DNA of 43,750 bases from a virus (lineage: Duplodnaviria; Caudoviricetes), in IMG/VR virus record IMGVR_UViG_3300037760_000105, positions 1 to 43,750 of that record, one strand, 5' to 3'. This document shows, one piece after another, positions 17,599 to 43,750 of this stretch; positions within the stretch are counted from its first letter, which is position 1, and the number at the start of each line of letters is the position of its first letter. The notes under the pieces were generated by a model that saw nothing but the letters and a program-made list of their open reading frames with translations, ran no database searches and was not told the origin of the DNA. The translations under genes were made by a program, and so were the position numbers.

Positions 17599-18912
17599 GT
17601 GGCGTCCCAGATCACGGTGGGGCTCCGGCTCCCGCGACTCACGCTGACGCTCTCGAGCCTCGGCGGACAGACGACGTCGCAGCTAGGGCTACCGGGACCG
17701 CAGGGGCCACAGGGACCGCAGGGCGAGGCGGGCCCGGCGGGACATACGACGACCTGGCGCGGCGCCTACGCCGCGGAGACGGAGTACGCCGCGGGTGATG
17801 CCGTTGAGCTCGCCGGCACGCCCTACGTCGCCACGCTCGCGACGGTGGGCGTGGCGCCTCCTGCGGCCCCCTGGGCGCTCGTCGCCGCAGGGCCCGAGGG
17901 TCCAGCGGGACCGGCGGGCGAGGTCGGTCCCGAAGGGCCCGAGGGGCCGGAAGGTCCGCAGGGCGATCCGGGACCACAGGCCGTCTGGGGGGGCGCGGAG
18001 GTCGGGACGATCCAGGGCTTCTGGGTGGGCGAGACCCAGCCGCCCGACAACACGTGGATCTGGATCGTGACCGGCACCGCGCCGGGCGCGCCCGCCAGCG
18101 TGCAGGCGGTCTCGGCCATGTTCGGGATCACCGCGCTCTCGCCGCTGGTGCAGGCCCAGGACGCACCGATCGAGATCGCGGCCGCGCTGGTCGCCATGGG
18201 GCTCGTCGCCATCGCCCCCGCCGTGGTCGCGCAGGGCAGCGCCGCCGCTGTCGATGCTGCCGCAGTGCTGATCCCCGTGGACCCGATCGCGCCCGTTGTC
18301 ACGGAGCAGACGGCCGGTGCGCCTGCCTCCTACGTCTCCGCGGGAGCGGAGGCATCCAACGGCGAGGGTGCCTCTATCGTGCCGTTCCCGTCGAGCGGGA
18401 TCCAGGACGGCGATCTGTTCGTTCTCGTCCGCACCGGGTCGGACGGAGCGGCACCTTCCGGGTGGACACAGCAGATCGACCCGGGCAGCGGCGGGCAGGG
18501 GCTCCTGTACCGGTACGCGACTACCAGCGACAACGGTGGGTCCGTCACCATCGGCGCGTTCAACGACGGGGAGTACGACTACCCGACTTCCGGCCGGGTG
18601 TACGTCCTCCGCTCCACCGCGACGGTCTCTCCAATCCACGATGCTGCGTATGGAGCGTTCTCAGACACCACGGCCACGGGCAGCGCCCTCACCAGCCTGC
18701 CCTCGGGATCAATGCTGGCCTTCTTCGTCCAGACGGGCAATTCCGTGACGCCGCCCGGCGTGGGTGGCGGCATCGACACGCTCGCCACCGGCGCGGGGAC
18801 GAAGCACCTCGGGTACGGGGCGTCCGCGCCCGCGAACCCGAGCGCCCCTACGATGACGTTCGGCACAAGCCAGAACGGTGGTCACTTCACTGTCGCGATC
18901 AAGGGGGCCTAG
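17599..18912 (+). CDS. Collagen-repeat fibre protein with carbohydrate-binding-like module
   Basis: Two Gly-X-Y tracts (GPQGPQGPQGEAGPAG; GPEGPAGPAGEVGPEGPEGPEGPQGDPGPQ) flanking 'WRGAY....EY..GDAV...G..YVA......PP..PW'. Confidence 0.8.
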   Translation: MASQITVGLRLPRLTLTLSSLGGQTTSQLGLPGPQGPQGPQGEAGPAGHTTTWRGAYAAETEYAAGDAVELAGTPYVATLATVGVAPPAAPWALVAAGPEGPAGPAGEVGPEGPEGPEGPQGDPGPQAVWGGAEVGTIQGFWVGETQPPDNTWIWIVTGTAPGAPASVQAVSAMFGITALSPLVQAQDAPIEIAAALVAMGLVAIAPAVVAQGSAAAVDAAAVLIPVDPIAPVVTEQTAGAPASYVSAGAEASNGEGASIVPFPSSGIQDGDLFVLVRTGSDGAAPSGWTQQIDPGSGGQGLLYRYATTSDNGGSVTIGAFNDGEYDYPTSGRVYVLRSTATVSPIHDAAYGAFSDTTATGSALTSLPSGSMLAFFVQTGNSVTPPGVGGGIDTLATGAGTKHLGYGASAPANPSAPTMTFGTSQNGGHFTVAIKGA

Positions 18913-18915
18913 CGG

Positions 18916-20982
18916 ATGCCCCTGGCCGGCTACAGCTACGAGCACCAGCTGGAGATCACCGCTCCGGCTGGTGGGCTCGCTGCCGGCACTGTCGTCTCGG
19001 CGACGCTGGAGACGCGCACCCTCATCGCGGCCGGGCAGTGCCAGCCGACGCGGCGCGACTTTCGGGTCACGTACAACGGAACCGAGATCCACCGCGTCAT
19101 GCTCACCACGGGCAGGTGTGCGTTCCGGCTGCAAGCGAGCATCGCCGGAGACGCGACCTCCACGGCCTACGCCATCGGCTACGGCAACGCGAGCGAGGCC
19201 ACCGAGCCGCTAGAGGACCCACGTGAGGTCTGGGCGTTCTACTGCGACGGCGACGACCTCGCGACGCTGACCACCTCGGGGACGGTGTCGGCACTGGACC
19301 TGCCGCGGCCAGGGTTCTTGAAGGTCGGGGCGAACCCGGTGATCCGGCGCGGCACCTCCGGGCAGTTCGACTACGGCTGCATCCGTGAGGTCGAGCTTTT
19401 CCACGACGGGACGTACTTCTGGGCGTGCTACGACGCCTACGCCGTACCGGACGAGGACTCCTCGCTGTCGGGTGTCGGCCTCGCGCGCTCGACGGATTTG
19501 CTCAACTGGGAGAAGCGCGGGCGCAAGACGGATACGGCCGCGGGTCGCCTCAATGACGCGATCATTCATCAACTTCCCGGGCAGTCCGGACTGCACATCA
19601 CCTGGTTCAAGCACAGCACCAACAATGGATCTGGGGTGCCCTGGCCGCCGTACACCCTGCACATCGCGACGGCGGATAGTGTCGAGGGGACGTGGACCGA
19701 TCAGTACGAGTTCGCGCGCACCTCGGGCGGCTACGACGACAGCTACAACGTTGACGGGCACATCCTCACGCCCGACGGTGGCACGACGTGGATCCTCATT
19801 CACGGCGCGTCAGGGGCGAACGGCACGACTGCGGCATGGGCGCGCTCCACGACCGGACCGCTCGGCCCCTATACGAAGATGGGGCAAATCGTTTCCGGGT
19901 TTTCCGGGATCGAGAACCCACGATACCTCGTCGGCGGCGACGGGCACGACTACGTGCTCGGGAACTGGATCTCGCCCGGTGGGTACACGCGATCGAACCT
20001 CATCTACTGGAATACCGGAGGGCTGAGCTTCAGTGGATCGACCCGACTCGCCATCGTAGAGCCCGGCGATCCCGGCGATTGGGACGACTACGCGATCGGC
20101 GTCCTCGGGATGCCCGTCATCCGGGACGGGATGATTTACGCGACCTACGACGCCAACCGTGCCGCGGACGTGGCCGCTGGTGGTTTCCCGGAGAGCCTCC
20201 ACTTCTGGCGCGACGCGGGCGCGGTAGAGGCCCCGTGGCCGCCTCGCTGGGGGAAGGGGATCCAGTTCGGAGCAGCGGCGACCGCCACCACCCCCGTGCT
20301 CCTCGCGGCCGGCGCGGACGGAGAGGTGCGGGTCCGCGTCCATCCGGGCGCATCGGTCGAGTTGTTCGGTGCGGGCGAGTCGTTCCGGGTTTGGGGCGGG
20401 CCGGAAGTGGATTACCTGATCCCGGTGAACGTGGACGTGAACGGCTCCCCGGCGACTCTAGTCAATGCCTTCTCGACGGGTGTGGACGACGCCGGCAGCG
20501 CGCCGTCGCACAGCCTGCTCCTGCGCCGCAGCAGCGGGACGCTGAGCATCTACTGCCAGAGCATGCTTTTGTGGGAAGGCTCGTCCTCTGCGGCGCTGGC
20601 TGGGCGGATGAGTGGTACGGGAGCGTTTGTCGAGGAGTTGTGGGCCACCAACCCGTTGACGGCGCCGACTGCGATCTACGCCCCTACGGTGTCGCTCGCG
20701 CTCGCGGCACAGGCCCCTGCCGTCGCGCCGAGGGCCACGCCGTTCGCGGTGCCGTCGATCTCGGTCCCGGTCTCCGCGGTTGCCCCGAACGTCGCGCGCC
20801 GGGAGTTTGCCCACGTCCAGGCGGCAAGCGTAGCGGTCGCGATCGACGCCTACGTGCCAACGGTGCATGCTCTATCGGTCGGCAATCAACTGCACCTTCC
20901 CGATGGCTCATTGGTCTCGATGCGGTGGTGGGATGGTTCACAGTGGTCCCCGGCCAGCATCCGGGTCGGCCCCTTCGTCTGA
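18916..20982 (+). CDS. Virion-associated protein with five-bladed beta-propeller glycosidase-like domain (GH32/43/130-like) and DUF2341-like N-terminus
   Basis: 'GANPVIRRG..GQFD', 'VGLARSTDLLNWEK', 'GPLGPYTKMG', 'PGDWDD'; N-terminal 'RDFRVTYNGTEIHR'. Confidence 0.65.
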   Translation: MPLAGYSYEHQLEITAPAGGLAAGTVVSATLETRTLIAAGQCQPTRRDFRVTYNGTEIHRVMLTTGRCAFRLQASIAGDATSTAYAIGYGNASEATEPLEDPREVWAFYCDGDDLATLTTSGTVSALDLPRPGFLKVGANPVIRRGTSGQFDYGCIREVELFHDGTYFWACYDAYAVPDEDSSLSGVGLARSTDLLNWEKRGRKTDTAAGRLNDAIIHQLPGQSGLHITWFKHSTNNGSGVPWPPYTLHIATADSVEGTWTDQYEFARTSGGYDDSYNVDGHILTPDGGTTWILIHGASGANGTTAAWARSTTGPLGPYTKMGQIVSGFSGIENPRYLVGGDGHDYVLGNWISPGGYTRSNLIYWNTGGLSFSGSTRLAIVEPGDPGDWDDYAIGVLGMPVIRDGMIYATYDANRAADVAAGGFPESLHFWRDAGAVEAPWPPRWGKGIQFGAAATATTPVLLAAGADGEVRVRVHPGASVELFGAGESFRVWGGPEVDYLIPVNVDVNGSPATLVNAFSTGVDDAGSAPSHSLLLRRSSGTLSIYCQSMLLWEGSSSAALAGRMSGTGAFVEELWATNPLTAPTAIYAPTVSLALAAQAPAVAPRATPFAVPSISVPVSAVAPNVARREFAHVQAASVAVAIDAYVPTVHALSVGNQLHLPDGSLVSMRWWDGSQWSPASIRVGPFV

Positions 20983-20995
20983 AAGGAAACAGATC

Positions 20996-21421
20996 ATGGC
21001 CTCTTCTGCTTACATGTACGCCAACGCCAAGGAGACGTTTGCCGATGGCGCGGTGATCGACTGGGTTAACGACGCGTTCAAGGGCGTGCTCGTGTCGAGC
21101 GCCTATACTCCCGACTACGACACGCACGAGTTCCTGTCCTCCGTGACCAATACGGTGGGCACGGCGGTGGCGGTCTCCGGCAAGACACTGGCCAAGATCG
21201 GCACAGGAGCCACCGCGCAGTACGCGCTGAGATCGTCGGCGGTCTCGTTCACGGGCAACCTGACGGCGCGCGGGATGGTCCTCTACAAGGACACTGGCAG
21301 TGCGGCCACGAGCCGGCTTCTCTCCTACGTCCTGCTCGACAACGCGCCAGCGGACGTGTCCTCGTCGGTGGGCATCGACGTGACCCCTGACTCCACGAAC
21401 GGCTGGATCCGGGTGGGGTAA
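20996..21421 (+). CDS. Putative virion structural protein
   Basis: Strong RBS GAAAGGA; 'IDWVNDAFKGVLVSSAYTPD..THEF', 'ARGMVLYKDTG..ATSRLLSY' pattern seen in phage structural proteins. Confidence 0.6.
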   Translation: MASSAYMYANAKETFADGAVIDWVNDAFKGVLVSSAYTPDYDTHEFLSSVTNTVGTAVAVSGKTLAKIGTGATAQYALRSSAVSFTGNLTARGMVLYKDTGSAATSRLLSYVLLDNAPADVSSSVGIDVTPDSTNGWIRVG

Positions 21422-21424
21422 TCC

Positions 21425-21757
21425 ATGGCGAAACTCACGATGGACGAGGGCGAGTACGCCCAGGCCACGATCGACCTTACGGGGCTCGAGGCTCCGTGGG
21501 ACGACATCACCGGGGCGACGCTCACCCTGTACGCGCACGACAAAACGACCAAGACGCCGATGACTCCGGTGACCGGCGTGCTCGACGCTCCCGCCGCGGA
21601 CGGGAAGCGGCATTCCGGCTACGCGCTCGTGCCTGACACGTGGCCGTCGTCGGCGTACTTCTGCACGCTCGAGCTCGAGAAGGCCGGCGACGGCTACCCG
21701 CAGAAGCAGTCGTTCGATCTCGTGATCGAGCCGGTCGCGCTGCGTCCGGCGACGTAG
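21425..21757 (+). CDS. BppU-N-like Ig-fold adaptor protein
   Basis: 'DDITGATLTL', beta-rich 110 aa; located among fibre genes. Confidence 0.45.
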   Translation: MAKLTMDEGEYAQATIDLTGLEAPWDDITGATLTLYAHDKTTKTPMTPVTGVLDAPAADGKRHSGYALVPDTWPSSAYFCTLELEKAGDGYPQKQSFDLVIEPVALRPAT

Positions 21758-21776
21758 CCACCCAGGGGGAGAGACC

Positions 21777-23018
21777 ATGGGCTTCATTGAAGATCCCACA
21801 CTGTTCGACGACAAGGCCGCGCTACGGGAGCTCCCTGCCGGCGCCTCGGCAACGAACTACCCCCGGGCCTCGGACCTGAACGCACTCAAGGACGCGGCGC
21901 TGGATCTGCGCACGGAAGCCATCGCGATGGCGGAGGACATCTCGAACTTCGTATTGGGTACGCCCTCGGCGAGCACCGCCCTCGTCACCGCCACCGGGAG
22001 CACGACGGCGAGGACGCTGGCGGACACCCAGACGCACGCGGTGGTTCCGGGTAGCGGCGGCAACCGGAGCATCGTGGGCAACCCCGACACGAACACGATC
22101 GCAACGGATTCGGTCGGAAACACGATCTCGGGCGGCGGAAATTCACCCGATTCGCCGAACATCATCGGCACCGCGCCCGGGAAAAACGTTTGGGTCGCGA
22201 CGATCGGCGGCGGCTACGACAATCAGAGTGACGGCACGGCAAGCACCATTGGCGGTGGGGCGCATCACAGGATCACTCCGGTCAGCGCGACGCTCGGCCA
22301 CGGTCACCACGGCACCATCGGCGGAGGCTCGTTCAGCACGCTCTCCGCAGATGGCGACTACAACACCATCGGTGGCGGGACGCAGCACGTCATCGACGGC
22401 ACGTCATCGTCGGCGACCATCGCAGGTGGCAACGACAACACCGTATCCGCTAACCGCGGATCCATTATCGGGGGGCAGGCGAACACGGTCACGGGCGTCG
22501 GCGGCTCGGTCCTCGGCGGATTGGAGAACGTTGCGGCGGGCCAGTGGAGCACGGCGAGCGGTTATGGCGGGAAGGCGACCTTCGAGGGGCAGCGCGCGCA
22601 CGGCGTCAGTTACTTCGGCGTTGCCGGCGACGCGCAAGGGTTCGACGCCGTCCTGAAGCGGGTAACGACCGACGGATCCGCCGCGTCCATGACGATCGGT
22701 ACTGCCGGAACGTTCATGGTGCTGCCCGACAACACCACGTGGGCTTTTGACGCGCTGATCGTGGGCCGCAACACGGCGGCGGACGAGCACGCCGCGTACA
22801 AGGTCTCAGGACTGATCAAGCGAGACTCGGGGGCCGGAACGGTGGCGCTCGTGGGTTCCGTCACGACGACAGTAATCGCTGAGACCGTCGCCGCCTGGAC
22901 CGCGTCGGCAACGGCGGAGACCGCTACGGGTGATCTCCGAATCCGGGTGACCGGGGAGGCCGGGAAGACGATCCGGTGGTCGGCGTTCGTCCACGCGGCT
23001 GCGGTTACGGGCCCGTAG
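21777..23018 (+). CDS. Tail fibre/adhesin with YadA-head-like beta-roll repeats
   Basis: Repeated 'S/T-IGGGxxN' units; 'TATGSTTARTLAD' fibre-neck motif. Confidence 0.75.
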   Translation: MGFIEDPTLFDDKAALRELPAGASATNYPRASDLNALKDAALDLRTEAIAMAEDISNFVLGTPSASTALVTATGSTTARTLADTQTHAVVPGSGGNRSIVGNPDTNTIATDSVGNTISGGGNSPDSPNIIGTAPGKNVWVATIGGGYDNQSDGTASTIGGGAHHRITPVSATLGHGHHGTIGGGSFSTLSADGDYNTIGGGTQHVIDGTSSSATIAGGNDNTVSANRGSIIGGQANTVTGVGGSVLGGLENVAAGQWSTASGYGGKATFEGQRAHGVSYFGVAGDAQGFDAVLKRVTTDGSAASMTIGTAGTFMVLPDNTTWAFDALIVGRNTAADEHAAYKVSGLIKRDSGAGTVALVGSVTTTVIAETVAAWTASATAETATGDLRIRVTGEAGKTIRWSAFVHAAAVTGP

Positions 23019-23043
23019 GTCTCCCCGCTATTTCCGCGCTACC

Positions 23044-23134
23044 GGGTCGCCGGGGGTCGCTCCGGGTCGCCCGGAGGGTGCGCGGGGGAGGGCGTAACCC
23101 CGCGACTCCCCGTGGGCGGGTCGGCGTGGGTCGC
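23044..23134 (+). repeat. GGGTCGC repeats at 10-bp period; putative integrase arm-type or Xis binding sites
   Basis: GGGTCGC at 23044, 23054, 23064 and 23128; GGGTCGG at 23118; adjacent to the putative att core. Confidence 0.55.
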
Positions 23135-23139
23135 ACCCT

Positions 23140-23170
23140 CGACAGAACCCGGCTTATTGGGCGGCTCCGG
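23140..23170 (+). other. rnpB: Putative attP core: 3'-terminal fragment of RNase P RNA
   Basis: CGACAGAACCCGGCTTAT matches the conserved CR-V/P4 3' strand of type A RNase P RNA, followed by a plausible P1 3' strand (TGGGCGGCTCCGG); ends 10 bp from the integrase stop codon. Confidence 0.8.
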
Positions 23171-23180
23171 TGTTTTACTT

Positions 23181-24365
23181 CTAACCGCCCGATTTCTTTG
23201 GGCGCGGCCCCGCGATCTTGCGATCGACTCGCGGGATCCCACCTTCGTCCCGGATATGTCCCGCCACCTTCCCGCCGGCGGAGAGGTCCACCTGCAGCGC
23301 CCCGTGCACCCCGTCCGCGAACCACCCCGGGGCGAGGTGGGCGTATCGCTCGGTGATCGAGATGCTCGAGTGACCGAGGATGGCCTGCAGCTCGCGCAAC
23401 GGACGGCCCGCCATGGCCCACTGCGAGGCGAACGTGTGCCGGGTGCACTCGTACCAGCCGAGCCCCTCGCGCTCGAGCCCTAGCCCCTGCAGCGCGTTCC
23501 TGAGCGCCTTCCCGGGGGTGTTCTTGTCCACCTTCTTCCCGTCGATGCGGAGCGGGGGGATTACCCGGCCCGGCCCTGGGTGGCGAAGCCGCCACGCCTG
23601 CAGCACGGGCAGGAGCGGATCGAGGATCGGAACCGGCCTAGGGTCCCGGTCTTTCGTCGCCCCCTTCACGCTCTCCGAGACGAGGATGCGCTGGCCCTGC
23701 AGGTCCACCGACCGCCACTGCAGCGCGAACACCTCGCCCGTTCGCAGGCCCGCAAGGCTCCCGATCGCGAACGCGACGTTGAGCGGCTCCCTGAGCTGCA
23801 GGTACACCCGGCGCACGTCCTCGAGTCGCTCGAGAAAAGGGGTCGTGCGCGGGTCATGATCGCTCCTCACGAGCCGCAGCAGACTCTTCGGGAGGTGACG
23901 CGCGGGATTCCTCGATGCGAGCCCGCGCTCGAGCAGGTCCTCGTACAGGCTCGAGAGCGTGGCGACGACGACCCGGAGCGTCCCGGGCGCCAACTCGGCG
24001 CGCTTCGCCTCGACGAGGGCGCGGAGTAGGGCAGAGTCCACCTCGTCGGGACGGAGGTGCCCGACCCAGGGGGCGAGGTGCCTGCGCCAGCGTGAGGCGT
24101 CCTCGCCGCCTGCAGCGTGGGTCTTCTTCCGGCGGTCGAGCCAGGGCCCGGCGAGCGCGCCGAGGGTCGGGACGAGGCGGGGATCTGCAGCGACCCCTAG
24201 CCGTCGATGCAGCTTCTCGGTGCGAAGGATCGCGGCACGCGCCTCCGCCTCGCTCTTGGTGCGGAAGCCGCTTTCGTAGACGTGGCCGGGACCGCGTCCG
24301 ACGGTGAGGGAGAAGCCGAGCCCTTCGCGGCGGATGGAACCTGAGCCCTTCGGTCGGCGCTTCAT
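23181..24365 (-). CDS. int: Tyrosine integrase
   Basis: N-terminal 'MKRRPKGSGSIRR'; catalytic 'AGLRTGEVFALQW', K, 'YECTRHTFAS', 'ILGHSSISITERYAH' (Y replaces the usual H in HxxR). Confidence 0.95.
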   Translation of the reverse strand: MKRRPKGSGSIRREGLGFSLTVGRGPGHVYESGFRTKSEAEARAAILRTEKLHRRLGVAADPRLVPTLGALAGPWLDRRKKTHAAGGEDASRWRRHLAPWVGHLRPDEVDSALLRALVEAKRAELAPGTLRVVVATLSSLYEDLLERGLASRNPARHLPKSLLRLVRSDHDPRTTPFLERLEDVRRVYLQLREPLNVAFAIGSLAGLRTGEVFALQWRSVDLQGQRILVSESVKGATKDRDPRPVPILDPLLPVLQAWRLRHPGPGRVIPPLRIDGKKVDKNTPGKALRNALQGLGLEREGLGWYECTRHTFASQWAMAGRPLRELQAILGHSSISITERYAHLAPGWFADGVHGALQVDLSAGGKVAGHIRDEGGIPRVDRKIAGPRPKKSGG

Positions 24366-24375
24366 GCCCTGGAGG

Positions 24376-24642
24376 CTACCGCGGAGGCGCGCGCGGAGGC
24401 CAGATGACCATCCGTACCCCACCCGCGGGAGGGGCCAGCTCGAGGCGCCCGTCGCGGATCCAGCGCTGCACCGCCCGGGTGGTCACCTCCAGCCGGCGGG
24501 CCGCCTCGGGGATGGTCACCGCCGAGTCGTTGGAGGAGCGGAGCCGCTCGAGCTCCTGGCGCAGGGGGGCTACGGCGCGCTCGACCGCGACCGCGATCCG
24601 CTGGTCGAGGAGGTCCTCGAGCGAGTGCGCCGTCGCGGCCAT
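24376..24642 (-). CDS. xis: Excisionase-like HTH protein
   Basis: 'VTIPEAARRLEVTTRAVQRWIRDGRL'; directly upstream of int. Confidence 0.8.
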   Translation of the reverse strand: MAATAHSLEDLLDQRIAVAVERAVAPLRQELERLRSSNDSAVTIPEAARRLEVTTRAVQRWIRDGRLELAPPAGGVRMVIWPPRAPPR

Positions 24643-25099
24643 GGTCTACGCTGCCTCCCATCGGATCTTCTGCTGCATCGGGTGACGGTCCACGCGCGGC
24701 CGCTTCTCTCGACTCCATGACCCGCCGCCGGTCCGTTCGGCCACGACGCGCCACCCGGCAGCTCGGAGCGACGCCCCGCCCTCCTCGGGCAGCGTGTACG
24801 TGACGAGCTTCCGCCACCCGAGGGCGAGGGCGGCCCGGCGGCAGGCGGCGTACAGCATCGAACAGGCGTTGTGCGTCCCGTCTGTCGCTACCCGGGTGAT
24901 CTCGGCGGTCCACCCGTCGTTGAGCATCCTGGCGACGGGACGTCCCACGATGGCGACGCCCACGATCCGTCCCTCGTCCGCCACGGCCACCGCGAACAGT
25001 CCGCCCGGGGGCGGCTTGTGGTGGCGGTGATGCTGGGCGACGAATGACGCCGCGTCCTGCATCGACGTGGGGACGATCTCCATGGTCTACGCTGCCTCC
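24639..25099. repeat. 20-bp direct repeats (24639-24658 and 25080-25099) flanking the XF1762-family gene
   Basis: CCATGGTCTACGCTGCCTCC twice; on the - strand reads GGAGG-CAGCG-TAG-ACC-ATG-G. Confidence 0.9.
24646..25083 (-). CDS. XF1762-family protein (GNAT/Mom-like, putative DNA-modifying acyltransferase)
   Basis: 'FVAQHHRHH', 'VGVAIVGRPVARML.DGWTAEITRVATDGT.NACSMLY', 'LVTYTL..E.GASLRAAGW'. Confidence 0.75.
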   Translation of the reverse strand: MEIVPTSMQDAASFVAQHHRHHKPPPGGLFAVAVADEGRIVGVAIVGRPVARMLNDGWTAEITRVATDGTHNACSMLYAACRRAALALGWRKLVTYTLPEEGGASLRAAGWRVVAERTGGGSWSREKRPRVDRHPMQQKIRWEAA

Positions 25100-34330: not shown

Positions 34331-34863
34331 TCGAGATCCCGCTAACCAAGGGCTACGTCGCGATCGTTGATGACGAGGACGCGCACCTTGCTGTGTTCAA
34401 ATGGCAAGCACGGGCGGTGGAAGGCCAACCAGTGTATGCGCGCCGAACCGACCGCAGCGCTGGATATCCACGCGGGATCCTGCTTCACCGCGCCGTACTG
34501 GGCGTGACGGACCCAACGATATCCATTGATCATCACAATGGGGACGGACTTGACTGTCGCAGAGGCAATCTGCGGGTCGCGACCAGGTCGCAGAACCAAT
34601 GGAACCGCGGGGCGCCGAGAAGCAACAAATCTGGGTTCAAGGGCGTGGATTGGAACGCCGCCATGGGAAAATGGAGGGCAAAGATCCGGGTCAACTGGAA
34701 GATGCACCACTGTGGCTATTTTGAGGATCCGGTCGCGGCGGCGCACGCCTATGATGCGGCTGCTATAAGACTGCATGGTGAGTTTGCGCGGCTCAACTTC
34801 CCAGGGGCCGGCAATTCTGTATGCGCCTCACCGTCTAGCCCCGACGTGAGGCCGAGCCGATGA
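34327..34863 (+). CDS. HNH-AP2 homing endonuclease
   Basis: 'IPLTKGYVAIVDDED', 'IDHHNGDGLDCRRGNLR.AT.SQN', AP2 domain 'SGFKGV.W....KWRAKI...AAHAYDAAAIRLHGEFARLNF'; visibly lower GC. Confidence 0.92.
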   Translation: MIEIPLTKGYVAIVDDEDAHLAVFKWQARAVEGQPVYARRTDRSAGYPRGILLHRAVLGVTDPTISIDHHNGDGLDCRRGNLRVATRSQNQWNRGAPRSNKSGFKGVDWNAAMGKWRAKIRVNWKMHHCGYFEDPVAAAHAYDAAAIRLHGEFARLNFPGAGNSVCASPSSPDVRPSR

Positions 34864-35609
34864 GCCACGTCGTGCATTGTTCCGACTGTCTCGACCCCGT
34901 GTCCGGGCTCGCGTCCCTCGGGGACAAGAGCGTGGACCATATGATCACGGACCCGCCGTATGAGGCGGAGGCGCACACGCTGCAGCGGCGGACGAAGGAG
35001 ACGGGGGCGGAGTTCGCGCAGGTGCTCGCCGCGCCGCTCGACTTCCCCGCCATCACGTCGGCGGAACGGCTCGCTGTGGCCGCCCATCTCGCGCGGGTCG
35101 CGCGGCGTTGGGTGATCGTGTTCTGTCAGGCCGAGGCGGTCCAGGCGTGGCGCGAGGCGCTGACCGCCGGGGGCGCCGTCTACAAGCGCGCCGCCGTGTG
35201 GGTGAAGCCGGACGCCATGCCGCAGCTTACGGGCGACCGGCCCGGCATGGGCTACGAGTCGATGGTCTGCGCGCACTCTGCGGGCCGTTCACGGTGGAAC
35301 GGCGGCGGGCGGGTCGGCGTCTACGTCGAGAACAAGAATCGGAGCGACCTGCAGCGCTCCGGGCACCCCACCCAGAAGCCCCTCGCGCTCATGGAGGCGC
35401 TCGTCCGCGACTTCACTGACCCCGGCGAGCTCATCTGCGACCCCTTCGCCGGCTCAGGGACCACGGGCGTCGCGTGCAAGCGTCTCGGCCGGCGCTTCGT
35501 GGGGTGGGAGCGTGACCCCAAGTATCACGCCATCGCGGTGAAGCGGATCGGGGCGACGCGGGAGCAGCTCCGCATGTTCGAGCCGGCGGCGTCGGCGGGG
35601 GAGGGGTAG
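34860..35609 (+). CDS. Orphan N6A/N4C DNA methyltransferase, beta class
   Basis: Catalytic 'ITDPPY' N-terminal to 'HPTQKP' and SAM-binding 'DPFAGSGTTG'. Confidence 0.92.
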   Translation: MSHVVHCSDCLDPVSGLASLGDKSVDHMITDPPYEAEAHTLQRRTKETGAEFAQVLAAPLDFPAITSAERLAVAAHLARVARRWVIVFCQAEAVQAWREALTAGGAVYKRAAVWVKPDAMPQLTGDRPGMGYESMVCAHSAGRSRWNGGGRVGVYVENKNRSDLQRSGHPTQKPLALMEALVRDFTDPGELICDPFAGSGTTGVACKRLGRRFVGWERDPKYHAIAVKRIGATREQLRMFEPAASAGEG

Positions 35610-37610: not shown

Positions 37611-37816
37611 GCGCGGACCACTTCTGCCTCTGCCTCCACCTCGACGCCCGCGGCTTCCCGTGCAACCGGCGGACGATGCGTCCCCTCTCTCTTTGCTCGC
37701 TTCACCGTCCGAAAGCGCGGGGCGGGACACACGCAGGACCCACCCCCGAGTACCAGCGGAAGCGCAAGGCACGACTCGCACTAGCCGGCATGGCGCCGGA
37801 AATGGAGGCAGCATGA
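37607..37816 (+). CDS. Small Cys/His-rich hypothetical protein
   Basis: ATGA-coupled on both sides; 'CLC.....G.PC......LCSLH'. Confidence 0.5.
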   Translation: MSADHFCLCLHLDARGFPCNRRTMRPLSLCSLHRPKARGGTHAGPTPEYQRKRKARLALAGMAPEMEAA

Positions 37817-38400
37817 TCGAGTTCACCCCGTTTCCCAAGATCGCCCGGTTGTCACGGGAGATCGTGGTTACGGAGAAGATCGACGGCACTAACGCGCAGG
37901 TTCACATCACCGAAGCGGGCGAGGTGTTGGCCGGCAGCCGCACGCGGTGGATCACCCCGCAGGCGGATAACTACAGCTTCGCAGCGTGGGTCGAGGCGCA
38001 CCGCGAGGAGTTGCTCGCGCTCGGCCCGGGGTCGCACTTCGGGGAGTGGTGGGGGCAGGGGATCCAGCGCCGGTACGGGCTCACCAAGAAGCGCTTTTCC
38101 CTATTCAACGTTGGGCGATGGATGGATGCCGACGCGAAGGAGTGGCCCGACCACTACTCGCGGGCAAAGCTGACCCTCGCCCCCGCCTGCTGCCATGTCG
38201 TGCCGGTCCTCTACGCTGGGCCATTCGCGACGGACGCGATCGACGAGACGCTGGCGGACCTGCGGCGCGTCGGTAGCTGCGCGGCCCGCGGATTCAAGTC
38301 ACCCGAGGGCATCGTGGTGTTCCATGCCGCTAGCGGGGCTCTGTTCAAGAAGACGCTCGATAAGGACGAGCAACCCAAGTCGATCACGGAGGCCGCATGA
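37813..38400 (+). CDS. RNA ligase family nucleotidyltransferase (Rnl2-like adenylation domain only)
   Basis: 'FPKIARL', motif I 'TEKIDGTNA', III 'FGEWWG.GIQ', IIIa 'FSLFN', 'VPVLY.G', IV 'EGIVV', V 'FKK'. Confidence 0.82.
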   Translation: MIEFTPFPKIARLSREIVVTEKIDGTNAQVHITEAGEVLAGSRTRWITPQADNYSFAAWVEAHREELLALGPGSHFGEWWGQGIQRRYGLTKKRFSLFNVGRWMDADAKEWPDHYSRAKLTLAPACCHVVPVLYAGPFATDAIDETLADLRRVGSCAARGFKSPEGIVVFHAASGALFKKTLDKDEQPKSITEAA

Positions 38401-42299: not shown

Positions 42300-43750
42300 T
42301 TCCAGCGACCGCGACCCGCAGGCCGCGGAAGGCGAAGAGGCCGGACCGGGACTACAGCGCGATCGCGATCCGGTTCGAGGACGATGTCCTAGCGGGGCGG
42401 TTCCCGACGGCGCCGATCTTCCGTGCCGCGATCGAGCGGCAGCGGCGCGACCTCGAGAAGCCGCCTGACGGGTTCGTCTTCTCTGCCGAGGAGGGGGACA
42501 AGTTCTGCCGCCGGGCGGAGCGGTTCCCGTTCGCGGGTGACGGGCCGAAGCGCGGGACCCCGTTCCACCTCGAGGCGTGGCAGGTGTGGGTCATACGCAC
42601 GCTGTTCGGGTGGGTGGACGAGGTCACCGGGGATCGGCGCTTCCGGGAGGCGTCGATCTGGCTTCCGAAGGGGAACGGCAAGACGCCCCTCGCGGCCCTG
42701 ATTGCTCTTTGCGTCCTCATGGTGGGGAAGGGCGGCGAGCAGGTTTACTCGGCGGCGACCACCCAGGACCAAGCGCGGCTCGTGTTCGATACGGCGCGCG
42801 AAATGCTCCTGCTCGACATCGATGCCGCTGCGGCTGCGGGGCGGAAGTCGATCGCCACGCACTTCGGGCTAGAGGTCGAGGAGCACAAGATCAAGGGAGG
42901 TCGGGACGGGAGGATCTACCGACCGATCTCCTCCGAGCACCGATCGGCAGAAGGCATCCGGCCCACGCTCGTCGTGTTGGACGAGGTCCACGTTCAGGCG
43001 AACCGGAAGCTCTACGACAACCTGAAGACCGCGGCGAACAAGGTGGACGGGTCGCTCCTGCTGGGGATCTCGACGGCCGGCAACGACATGACGCCCGGGG
43101 CTCTCGGGTGGCAGCTCTACAGCCGGGCGCGGACCATCCTCGAGGGCGGGACGGATTCCCCGTCCACGTTCGCGCTGATCGTGGAGGCGGACCGGAAGCG
43201 GGACCCGCTCGACTTTGAGACGTGGCGGCAGGCGAACCCGAACCTTGGGGTGTCGGTCTCGATCGCTGGCCTCAAGAGCGCGCTCCAGACAATGCGGGAG
43301 ACGCCCAGCGAGCGGCCCTCGCTAGAGGTTAAGCACCTCGGCTGGTGGCAGCAGACGGCTAACGCCTTCCTCGACGTCGCCCGGTGGAACGCCCTTGCCC
43401 ACCCCGATCTCCGGATCGAGGATCTCGACCCCGACGAAGGGTGGTCCGTGTTCGTGGGGATCGACCTTGCGCGGACGCGGGACCTGACGACGGCGGTCCC
43501 CGTCGCCGCCCGGGTGAGGGAGGACGGGAAGCGGGAATACCGGGTCTTTACGCGGTGGACCTACCTCCCCGCGGCGTCGGTGACGGTGAAGCAGATCCCG
43601 GACATCAGGGCGTGGGCCAAGGCCGGGTGGATCACCCTGCTCGAGGACGAGGACGGTACGCCGGCGGCGACCATGACGTTCCGCCCCCTCGTGGCGAAGG
43701 TGGTCGGTCTCGTGGAGCGGTTCCCGGACGTGCAGGCGTGTATTGACGAC
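42296..43750 (+). CDS. terL: Terminase large subunit, N-terminal ATPase part (about 591 aa in total across the join; absent from the ORF track)
   Basis: GTG 42296; 'LEAWQ', 'RRFREASIWLPKGNGKT', 'VYSAATTQDQA', 'VLDEVH', 'ISTAG', 'ANPNLG', 'GIDLA'. Confidence 0.95.
   Translation, partial: MIPATATRRPRKAKRPDRDYSAIAIRFEDDVLAGRFPTAPIFRAAIERQRRDLEKPPDGFVFSAEEGDKFCRRAERFPFAGDGPKRGTPFHLEAWQVWVIRTLFGWVDEVTGDRRFREASIWLPKGNGKTPLAALIALCVLMVGKGGEQVYSAATTQDQARLVFDTAREMLLLDIDAAAAAGRKSIATHFGLEVEEHKIKGGRDGRIYRPISSEHRSAEGIRPTLVVLDEVHVQANRKLYDNLKTAANKVDGSLLLGISTAGNDMTPGALGWQLYSRARTILEGGTDSPSTFALIVEADRKRDPLDFETWRQANPNLGVSVSIAGLKSALQTMRETPSERPSLEVKHLGWWQQTANAFLDVARWNALAHPDLRIEDLDPDEGWSVFVGIDLARTRDLTTAVPVAARVREDGKREYRVFTRWTYLPAASVTVKQIPDIRAWAKAGWITLLEDEDGTPAATMTFRPLVAKVVGLVERFPDVQACIDD
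43624..43750. repeat. Terminal direct repeat, copy 2 (circular assembly overlap)
   Basis: Identical to 1-127. Confidence 0.95.

Follow-up and report, generated by a model that had tools for sequence, protein, structure and literature searches.

Why should a phage carry the end of a bacterial ribozyme gene next to its integrase gene, and does this fragment mark the place at which the phage enters the chromosome of its host? The DNA analysed here (the window, a stretch of 43,750 nt) is that of a phage of 68% GC content, in which portal, protease, capsid, tape-measure-like, baseplate hub, and lysin genes were recognised by Pfam and PHROG profile searches. A 127-nt terminal repeat (43624-43750, plus strand, equal to positions 1-127) indicates a circular assembly of a 43.6-kb phage, and the window is consequently taken to represent the free (attP) form. 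The end of the structural module (17599-23018, plus strand) consists of collagen-repeat, GH43-like, and unannotated large ORFs. Its last ORF (21777-23018) had been called a fibre gene from the sequence alone; it matched no Pfam or PHROG family, leaving that label unconfirmed.

The fragment, a copy of the 3' end of the type A RNase P RNA gene in the presumptive core region of attP, occupies 23140-23170 on the plus strand and reads exactly CGACAGAACCCGGCTTATTGGGCGGCTCCGG (31 nt). A covariance search of 1.3 kb with Rfam RF00010, a check of the kind that the sequence-only reading had proposed, aligned 23140-23170 with the 3' end of the model (16.6 bits, E 0.0087), covering the 3' strand of CR-V/P4, J4/1, and the 3' strand of P1, and thereby placed the RNase P element exactly where that reading had put it. 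Measured against the RF00010 gathering score of 100, 16.6 bits mark an end fragment and not a full-length RNA gene. The accompanying claim that no other RNase P elements lie nearby was borne out as well: the 5' CR-I box GAGGAAAGTCC was not found in the window with up to one mismatch allowed, and an Rfam scan of the whole window returned no RNA family at the gathering score. ARAGORN found neither tRNA nor tmRNA in the window, and no promoter-like or terminator-like site was seen in 22950-23500. The conserved 15-mer ACAGAACCCGGCTTA occurs once in exact form in the window, and matches with up to two mismatches average 0.05 in shuffled sequence. In viral contigs, there are 108 exact matches to this 15-mer, 63 of which have neither the rnpB 5' box nor an integrase in their flanks (28 of the loci were judged on flanks of only about 300 nt). 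The 15-mer alone is therefore not diagnostic at database scale, and the case rests on the P1 extension and on homologues.

Ten nucleotides from the rnpB copy is the stop codon (23181-23183) of an intact tyrosine integrase gene of 394 codons, which occupies 23181-24365 on the minus strand with its database-called start at 24365. The product matches PF00589 (E 9e-18, 65.1 bits, cut-off 27.1) and phrog_1 (E 1.8e-44) and has R208, K238, R309, H332, and Y341 in place. The box II histidine is not conserved (E306 in this integrase), and the preceding Y305 is invariant in 116 of 116 ungapped rows of an alignment of 118; the box II form W-Y-x-x-T-R-H is family-wide, a trait held in common with tRNA-targeting relatives. 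Next to the integrase gene, an HTH protein (24376-24642, minus strand) is a probable excisionase, as judged by a weak match to excisionase PHROGs (E 9e-6), and homologues 40-63% identical to it stand 5' of the integrase in related loci. The window also encodes a Mom-like DNA modification protein (24646-25083, minus strand) and an N6/N4 methyltransferase (34860-35609, plus strand). Likewise, it encodes a protein with an RNA ligase domain (37660-38400, plus strand; PF09414, E 4e-17), a suggestive companion for a phage that would target an RNA-processing gene, with no link between the two shown. GenBank phages offered neither a close integrase nor an informative DNA match: 38 phage records match the integrase, all at less than 60% identity, and none is a myxophage.

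The strongest evidence comes from where related integrases sit. An alignment of 65 homologues was used to fetch loci, namely the best 80 of 479 genome relatives, the best 80 of 251 viral relatives, and 79 loci for the best 80 of 554 metagenome relatives, the metagenome scan covering 14 of 64 parts; most of the host loci are MAG contigs. Among the matches listed, Anaeromyxobacter and other Myxococcales MAGs are the nearest named hosts (L002, 73-74% identity). The 127 loci with a long, strong integrase match provided 118 distinct integrases for a FastTree phylogeny, which places the window integrase in a clade of 45 members (SH-like support 0.992). Fully 39 of the 45 adjoin the 3' end of rnpB, 18 of them the whole gene and 21 a fragment, a class that comprises free attP sites, tandem junctions, and rnpB genes cut by a contig end. 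Five of the remaining six lie on contigs that end too soon, and one is an exception. Outside the clade, none of 73 integrases is beside rnpB and 41 are beside tRNAs; no tRNA or tmRNA was seen beside any clade member. Rfam returned a full-scoring rnpB (244-315 bits) in 14 of the 16 loci scanned, and the two without it are an attP-type locus (L002) and a contig-truncated one (L167). In the phage contigs L001, L082, L083, L085, and L086/L101 and the MAG contig L002, the same core is present and the remainder of rnpB is missing; these phage-sized relatives (L002 aside) are all free forms. A clade provirus (L087) is clipped 87 nt past its integrase. As for the exception (L019/L318), the clade integrase of Anaeromyxobacter oryzae stands 2.8 Mb from rnpB with no core nearby, and it has been either displaced or retargeted.

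The layout expected of integration at rnpB is seen in related elements. In sixteen elements of Myxococcales, which span 1.2-11.7 kb, an intact rnpB stands at one end and a displaced 3' piece, equally oriented, at the other; 14 of them come from 19 multi-copy loci and two from a separate locus set, and two of the loci (L165 and L166) are near-identical. The other five multi-copy loci show tandem-type junctions only. Together with the 18 whole-rnpB neighbours, these elements answer the question of whether homologues lie beside an intact rnpB with a duplicated 3' fragment, and the earlier proposal that integration into rnpB restores its 3' end gains strong support from them. In the 14 elements from the multi-copy loci, the match to the clade integrase is unbroken in seven, broken in two, and not recognisable in five. 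More broadly, a degenerate 22-nt pattern for the rnpB end has a match in 233 of 363 Myxococcales genomes, of which 38 hold two to five copies; an unpublished genome with one match, G258, is counted among the 233. In the family of L015 (Anaeromyxobacteraceae, 92 genomes), at least two copies were found in 23 of the 75 genomes with a match, a figure that bin contamination may inflate. Tandem arrays of at least two elements stand at rnpB in L282, L286, L287, and L165/L166, several of them lacking an integrase. Pfam searches of 45 of the 87 ORFs from rnpB loci found host or island genes only, and the islands carry, variously, a PF03175 family B DNA polymerase domain, a Replic_Relax protein or a TraI-like helicase (L010, 7105-9486; L295, 9152-10579; L328, 14231-16135), a variety which indicates that several element types share the integrase clade. 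Neither an integrated copy of the window phage nor a prophage-sized element at rnpB was seen in the loci examined, and no homologue of the window's structural proteins was found in rnpB loci, a search that took in another 14 stretches as long as 20 kb.

Where within the core would the strands be exchanged? Identity between rnpB and the displaced copies begins at the equivalent of 23148. With the C at 23150 numbered 0, 15 comparisons in 14 loci yield 13 differences at -4 and 13 at -3, none at -2 or from 0 to +6, one at -1, one at +7, and two each at +18 and +20. In the six tRNA-type relatives with both junctions (L020, L028, L031, L036, L039, and L052), identity sets in at the 7-nt anticodon loop or 1 nt ahead of it, and the edge of identity is accordingly taken to mark the overlap in this integrase family. 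In addition, two tRNA-Leu sisters have a GTGnnCAC motif at -19 relative to the loop, and 17 of 54 rnpB-type left flanks have it at -21 relative to CGGCTTA, a spacing that places the start of the overlap at 23148. The edge and the flank motif thus point to a 7-bp overlap CCCGGCT in the P4 3' strand (23148-23154, plus strand), which is probably the correct register. The left flank of L020 scores best (7.7 bits) when the overlap starts at -2, the next score being -8.8; the other five tRNA-type flanks are weak or prefer -2 to -4, and long-range arm spacing suggests a start 0-2 nt to the left of 23148; a scan for core symmetry fixes no register. The main rival register, CGGCTTA (23150-23156, plus strand), is appreciably less probable and owes its standing to L284 and two distal copies in L283, which differ at -1, the second base of CCCGGCT. 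In 53 of 54 host genes, this base and the P4 5' strand covary, and displaced copies carry the host type at -1 in 15 of 16 elements, as expected if the -1 base lies inside the overlap. A further register, TTACAGG, is suggested by the likeness of the core to tRNA-Lys and tRNA-Arg antisense arms; it was given the lowest rank, as both the edge of identity and the flank motif of the sister clade favour a start 6 nt to its left.

The surroundings of the core resemble an attachment site in layout. To the left, two tandem arm-type repeats (CCCCGCTAT and CCGCGCTAC, 11 nt apart; 23023-23042, plus strand) are predicted integrase sites of a P arm, at offsets from 23150 of -127/-116 in the window, -125/-114 in L082 and L083, -126/-115 in L002, and -135/-124 in L001 and L085. 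They are followed by three GGTCGC repeats with 10-nt phasing (23045-23070, plus strand), candidate excisionase sites that recur at similar positions in L001, L082, and L083, and by two more GGTCG(G/C) repeats 10 nt apart (23119-23134, plus strand), which occupy the same -31/-21 positions in L082, L083, and L002. In total, GGTCG occurs five times in 121 nt, against 0.4 expected from its genome-wide density. To the right, probable but degenerate P' arm sites lie within the 3' end of int (23208-23225, plus strand), where CCCCGCGAT is identical at eight of nine positions to the window's own left repeat. A motif scan allowing two mismatches misses these right-arm sites in the window and finds a pair at +69/+79 in relatives, whose right arm is about 11 nt, or roughly one helical turn, further from the core. 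We infer that the repeats would bind integrase and excisionase, an assignment that leans on the attachment site layout of the lambda, P2, and HP1 type.

Taken as a whole, these observations suggest, with a probability of about 0.92, that 23023-23225 is the likely attP of a temperate myxobacterial phage, Anaeromyxobacteraceae-like in its host, and that its integrase would insert it into the 3' end of the host rnpB. The integrase would exchange strands over approximately 7 bp in the P4 3' strand, at CCCGGCT or 2 nt further right, so that the host would retain everything 5' of the exchange point. The phage would in turn supply the last P4 bases, J4/1 (TT), and the P1 3' strand GGGCGGCTCCGG (23159-23170, plus strand), rebuilding the ribozyme, and the old end of the host gene would be displaced to the far prophage junction. 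The HTH protein encoded at 24376-24642 would drive excision.

The P1 strand that the phage would supply fits the 5' strands of most hosts. Of 54 such strands, by computation, 32 pair with GGGCGGCTCCGG at all 10 inner positions and 53 at nine or more; the host rnpB 5' end forecast by the sequence-only reading, GGAGCCGCCC, does exist. The P1 strand had also been offered as a host barcode, and it appears to serve as such at the level of family, pointing to Anaeromyxobacteraceae-like hosts, and not of species. The two bases at the P4-P1 junction are less usual. The window has TT (23157-23158, plus strand), unique among 111 sites; 60 of 61 myxobacterial rnpB sites have CA and one has GA, and 31 other bacterial rnpB ends have TC (10), CG (7), TA (5), CA (5), CC (3), or AT (1). 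In an independent assembly of the probable source run, a sediment metagenome and the one public run in which the stretch was found, the TT and the surrounding letters are identical, and contigs of that run cross the site in one piece without joints, in the free form only; among the rows listed, run contigs aligned with a host rnpB show neither TT nor a phage junction. The window core with TT was absent, with up to one mismatch, from all 401 sampled Myxococcota genomes, none of which has an rnpB ending in CCCGGCTTATTGGGCGGCTCC, an absence that had been named beforehand as telling against integration at rnpB. It does not refute such integration, because TT is located beyond the predicted exchange point, on its 3' side, and the dinucleotide varies between the junctions of a single tandem array, L282, in which the element has supplied GA within rnpB and CA is displaced. 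Either the host is unsampled or lysogeny would change two bases of the RNA.

The TT is also an argument that the window site descends from an rnpB-targeting attP that has since decayed in this phage, with loss of integration. The degenerate right arm and the presence of only the free form in the probable source run are in keeping with such a history, but the integrase is intact and retains every catalytic position of its family; the left arm, the phased repeats, and the excisionase-like gene are intact as well. Moreover, the right arm has moved by about one turn of the helix, as might be expected had its phasing been preserved, and GA variants occupy the place of TT both in phage L085 and in the integrated array L282; decay is accordingly considered unlikely.

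It is more doubtful still that the phage integrates elsewhere, for example in a tRNA-Lys or tRNA-Arg gene with a core-like antisense anticodon arm. The tRNA-Lys(TTT) antisense arm found in relatives' targets, CCGGCTTAAAAGGCCGA, is indeed identical to the usual rnpB core at 13 of 16 positions, but the window copy runs through the whole P1 strand and not into tRNA sequence, and clade members are not found beside tRNAs. Finally, the match could be due to chance, or to host DNA acquired without a role in recombination, a suspicion fed by the 63 contextless 15-mers in viral contigs and by loci such as L366, in which a tRNA follows rnpB and may be the only reason that an integrase stands near it. 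A 31-nt match, its fixed place in 39 of 45 clade members, and displaced copies at far junctions make this explanation extremely improbable. Integration at rnpB thus remains the preferred reading.

How the clade came to rnpB is suggested by its relatives. Its sister group targets tRNA-Leu, and tRNA-type relatives insert at anticodon loops, making it likely that the rnpB clade arose by a target switch from the latter. The tRNA is on the integrase strand in 38 of 41 tRNA-adjacent relatives, and in the six with both junctions the displaced piece is the 5' half of the tRNA, a class that is rare in the Islander collection (159 of 3919 islands, according to PMC4383910). The antisense anticodon arms of tRNA-Lys(TTT) and tRNA-Arg(TCT) begin CGGCTTA (L045, L055, L069, L071, L199, L203, and L319), a likeness to the core that is possibly a stepping stone for the switch, or a coincidence. 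Separately, the viral contig L359 (2501-2515) has a whole, actinobacterial-looking rnpB, and 64 nt beyond it stands a convergent integrase gene whose product is only 27% identical to the window integrase and falls outside the clade; this hints at a second, independent rnpB-targeting origin, with no second junction in the locus.

Among solved structures, the best profile matches of the integrase are to PDB 1aih (HP1 integrase) and to 5c6k and 5dor, which we take to be P2 integrase (E 2e-16 and 2e-13), in the catalytic end only. The attP sites of HP1 and P2 have tandem direct arm repeats on both sides of the core, a layout that the window attP appears to share; unlike them, its integrase family has W-Y-x-x-T-R-H instead of H-x-L-R-H. 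The Myxococcus phages Mx8 and Mx9 target tRNA genes. Both are temperate with site-specific integration, and the attP of Mx8 is inside int, such that integration changes the end of the protein (PMC6070905), whereas the window core lies 10 nt beyond the int stop. Closer in kind is the Enterococcus phage phiEf11, which integrates into ffs, the 4.5S SRP RNA gene, and alters the 3' end of the RNA (PMC12540744). It likewise has its attB in a non-tRNA structural RNA gene, but it differs from the rnpB clade in RNA, host phylum, and integrase, and is there reported in one species, in contrast to a clade found across Myxococcales. The tRNA/tmRNA elements of Islander share an attP fragment that restores the target, an intact gene and a displaced fragment at the two ends, and tandem arrays (PMC4383910). 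Of these features, the window shows a fragment of the target end beside a tyrosine integrase, and the two-ended integrated form is seen in relatives only. Unlike Islander elements, the target is rnpB, with exchange predicted in the P4 helix, and is neither tRNA nor tmRNA.

A literature search, mostly of open-access texts, found no title or abstract that names rnpB as an attachment site; an earlier mention is possible. The term RNase P is absent from the available main text of PMC4383910, and rnpB is not named as an attachment site in the accessible portions of PMC12540744, PMC4383910, PMC13626063, PMC8138268, PMC6070905, PMC2386152, PMC2864759, and PMC2818188. A term search of the available text of bioRxiv 2025.09.16.676606 for rnpB returned no passage. 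In the portion of ProBord consulted, ncRNAs make up 13.5% of RNA-gene targets and are unnamed, and one supplement lacks the RNase P term.

By the evidence of sequence comparison, then, the window appears to hold a real, well-supported variant of RNA-gene-restoring integration, in which the target is unusual and the mechanism conventional. A bolder synthesis, offered tentatively and at somewhat less than even odds, is that the lineage left tRNA anticodon loops for the catalytic P4 helix; that the P4-covarying C/T base in the overlap would act as a host-range lock; that each insertion would overwrite J4/1 and the P1 3' strand (here CA to UU), the elements, given duplicated rnpB ends in 23 of 75 informative Anaeromyxobacteraceae genomes, routinely editing an essential ribozyme; and that rnpB has been captured independently by more than one integrase lineage. 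With the more conservative reading, the RNase P ribozyme gene becomes one more of the few structural RNA genes that serve as attachment sites, and in myxobacteria rnpB is a hotspot that would escape island finders based on tRNA and tmRNA genes. The clade offers a natural switch of integrase target, with tRNA-targeting sisters at hand for comparison, and a candidate for a new vector that would integrate into a conserved, single-copy gene of myxobacteria. The system also lends itself to testing directly whether an essential ribozyme can be changed by lysogeny.
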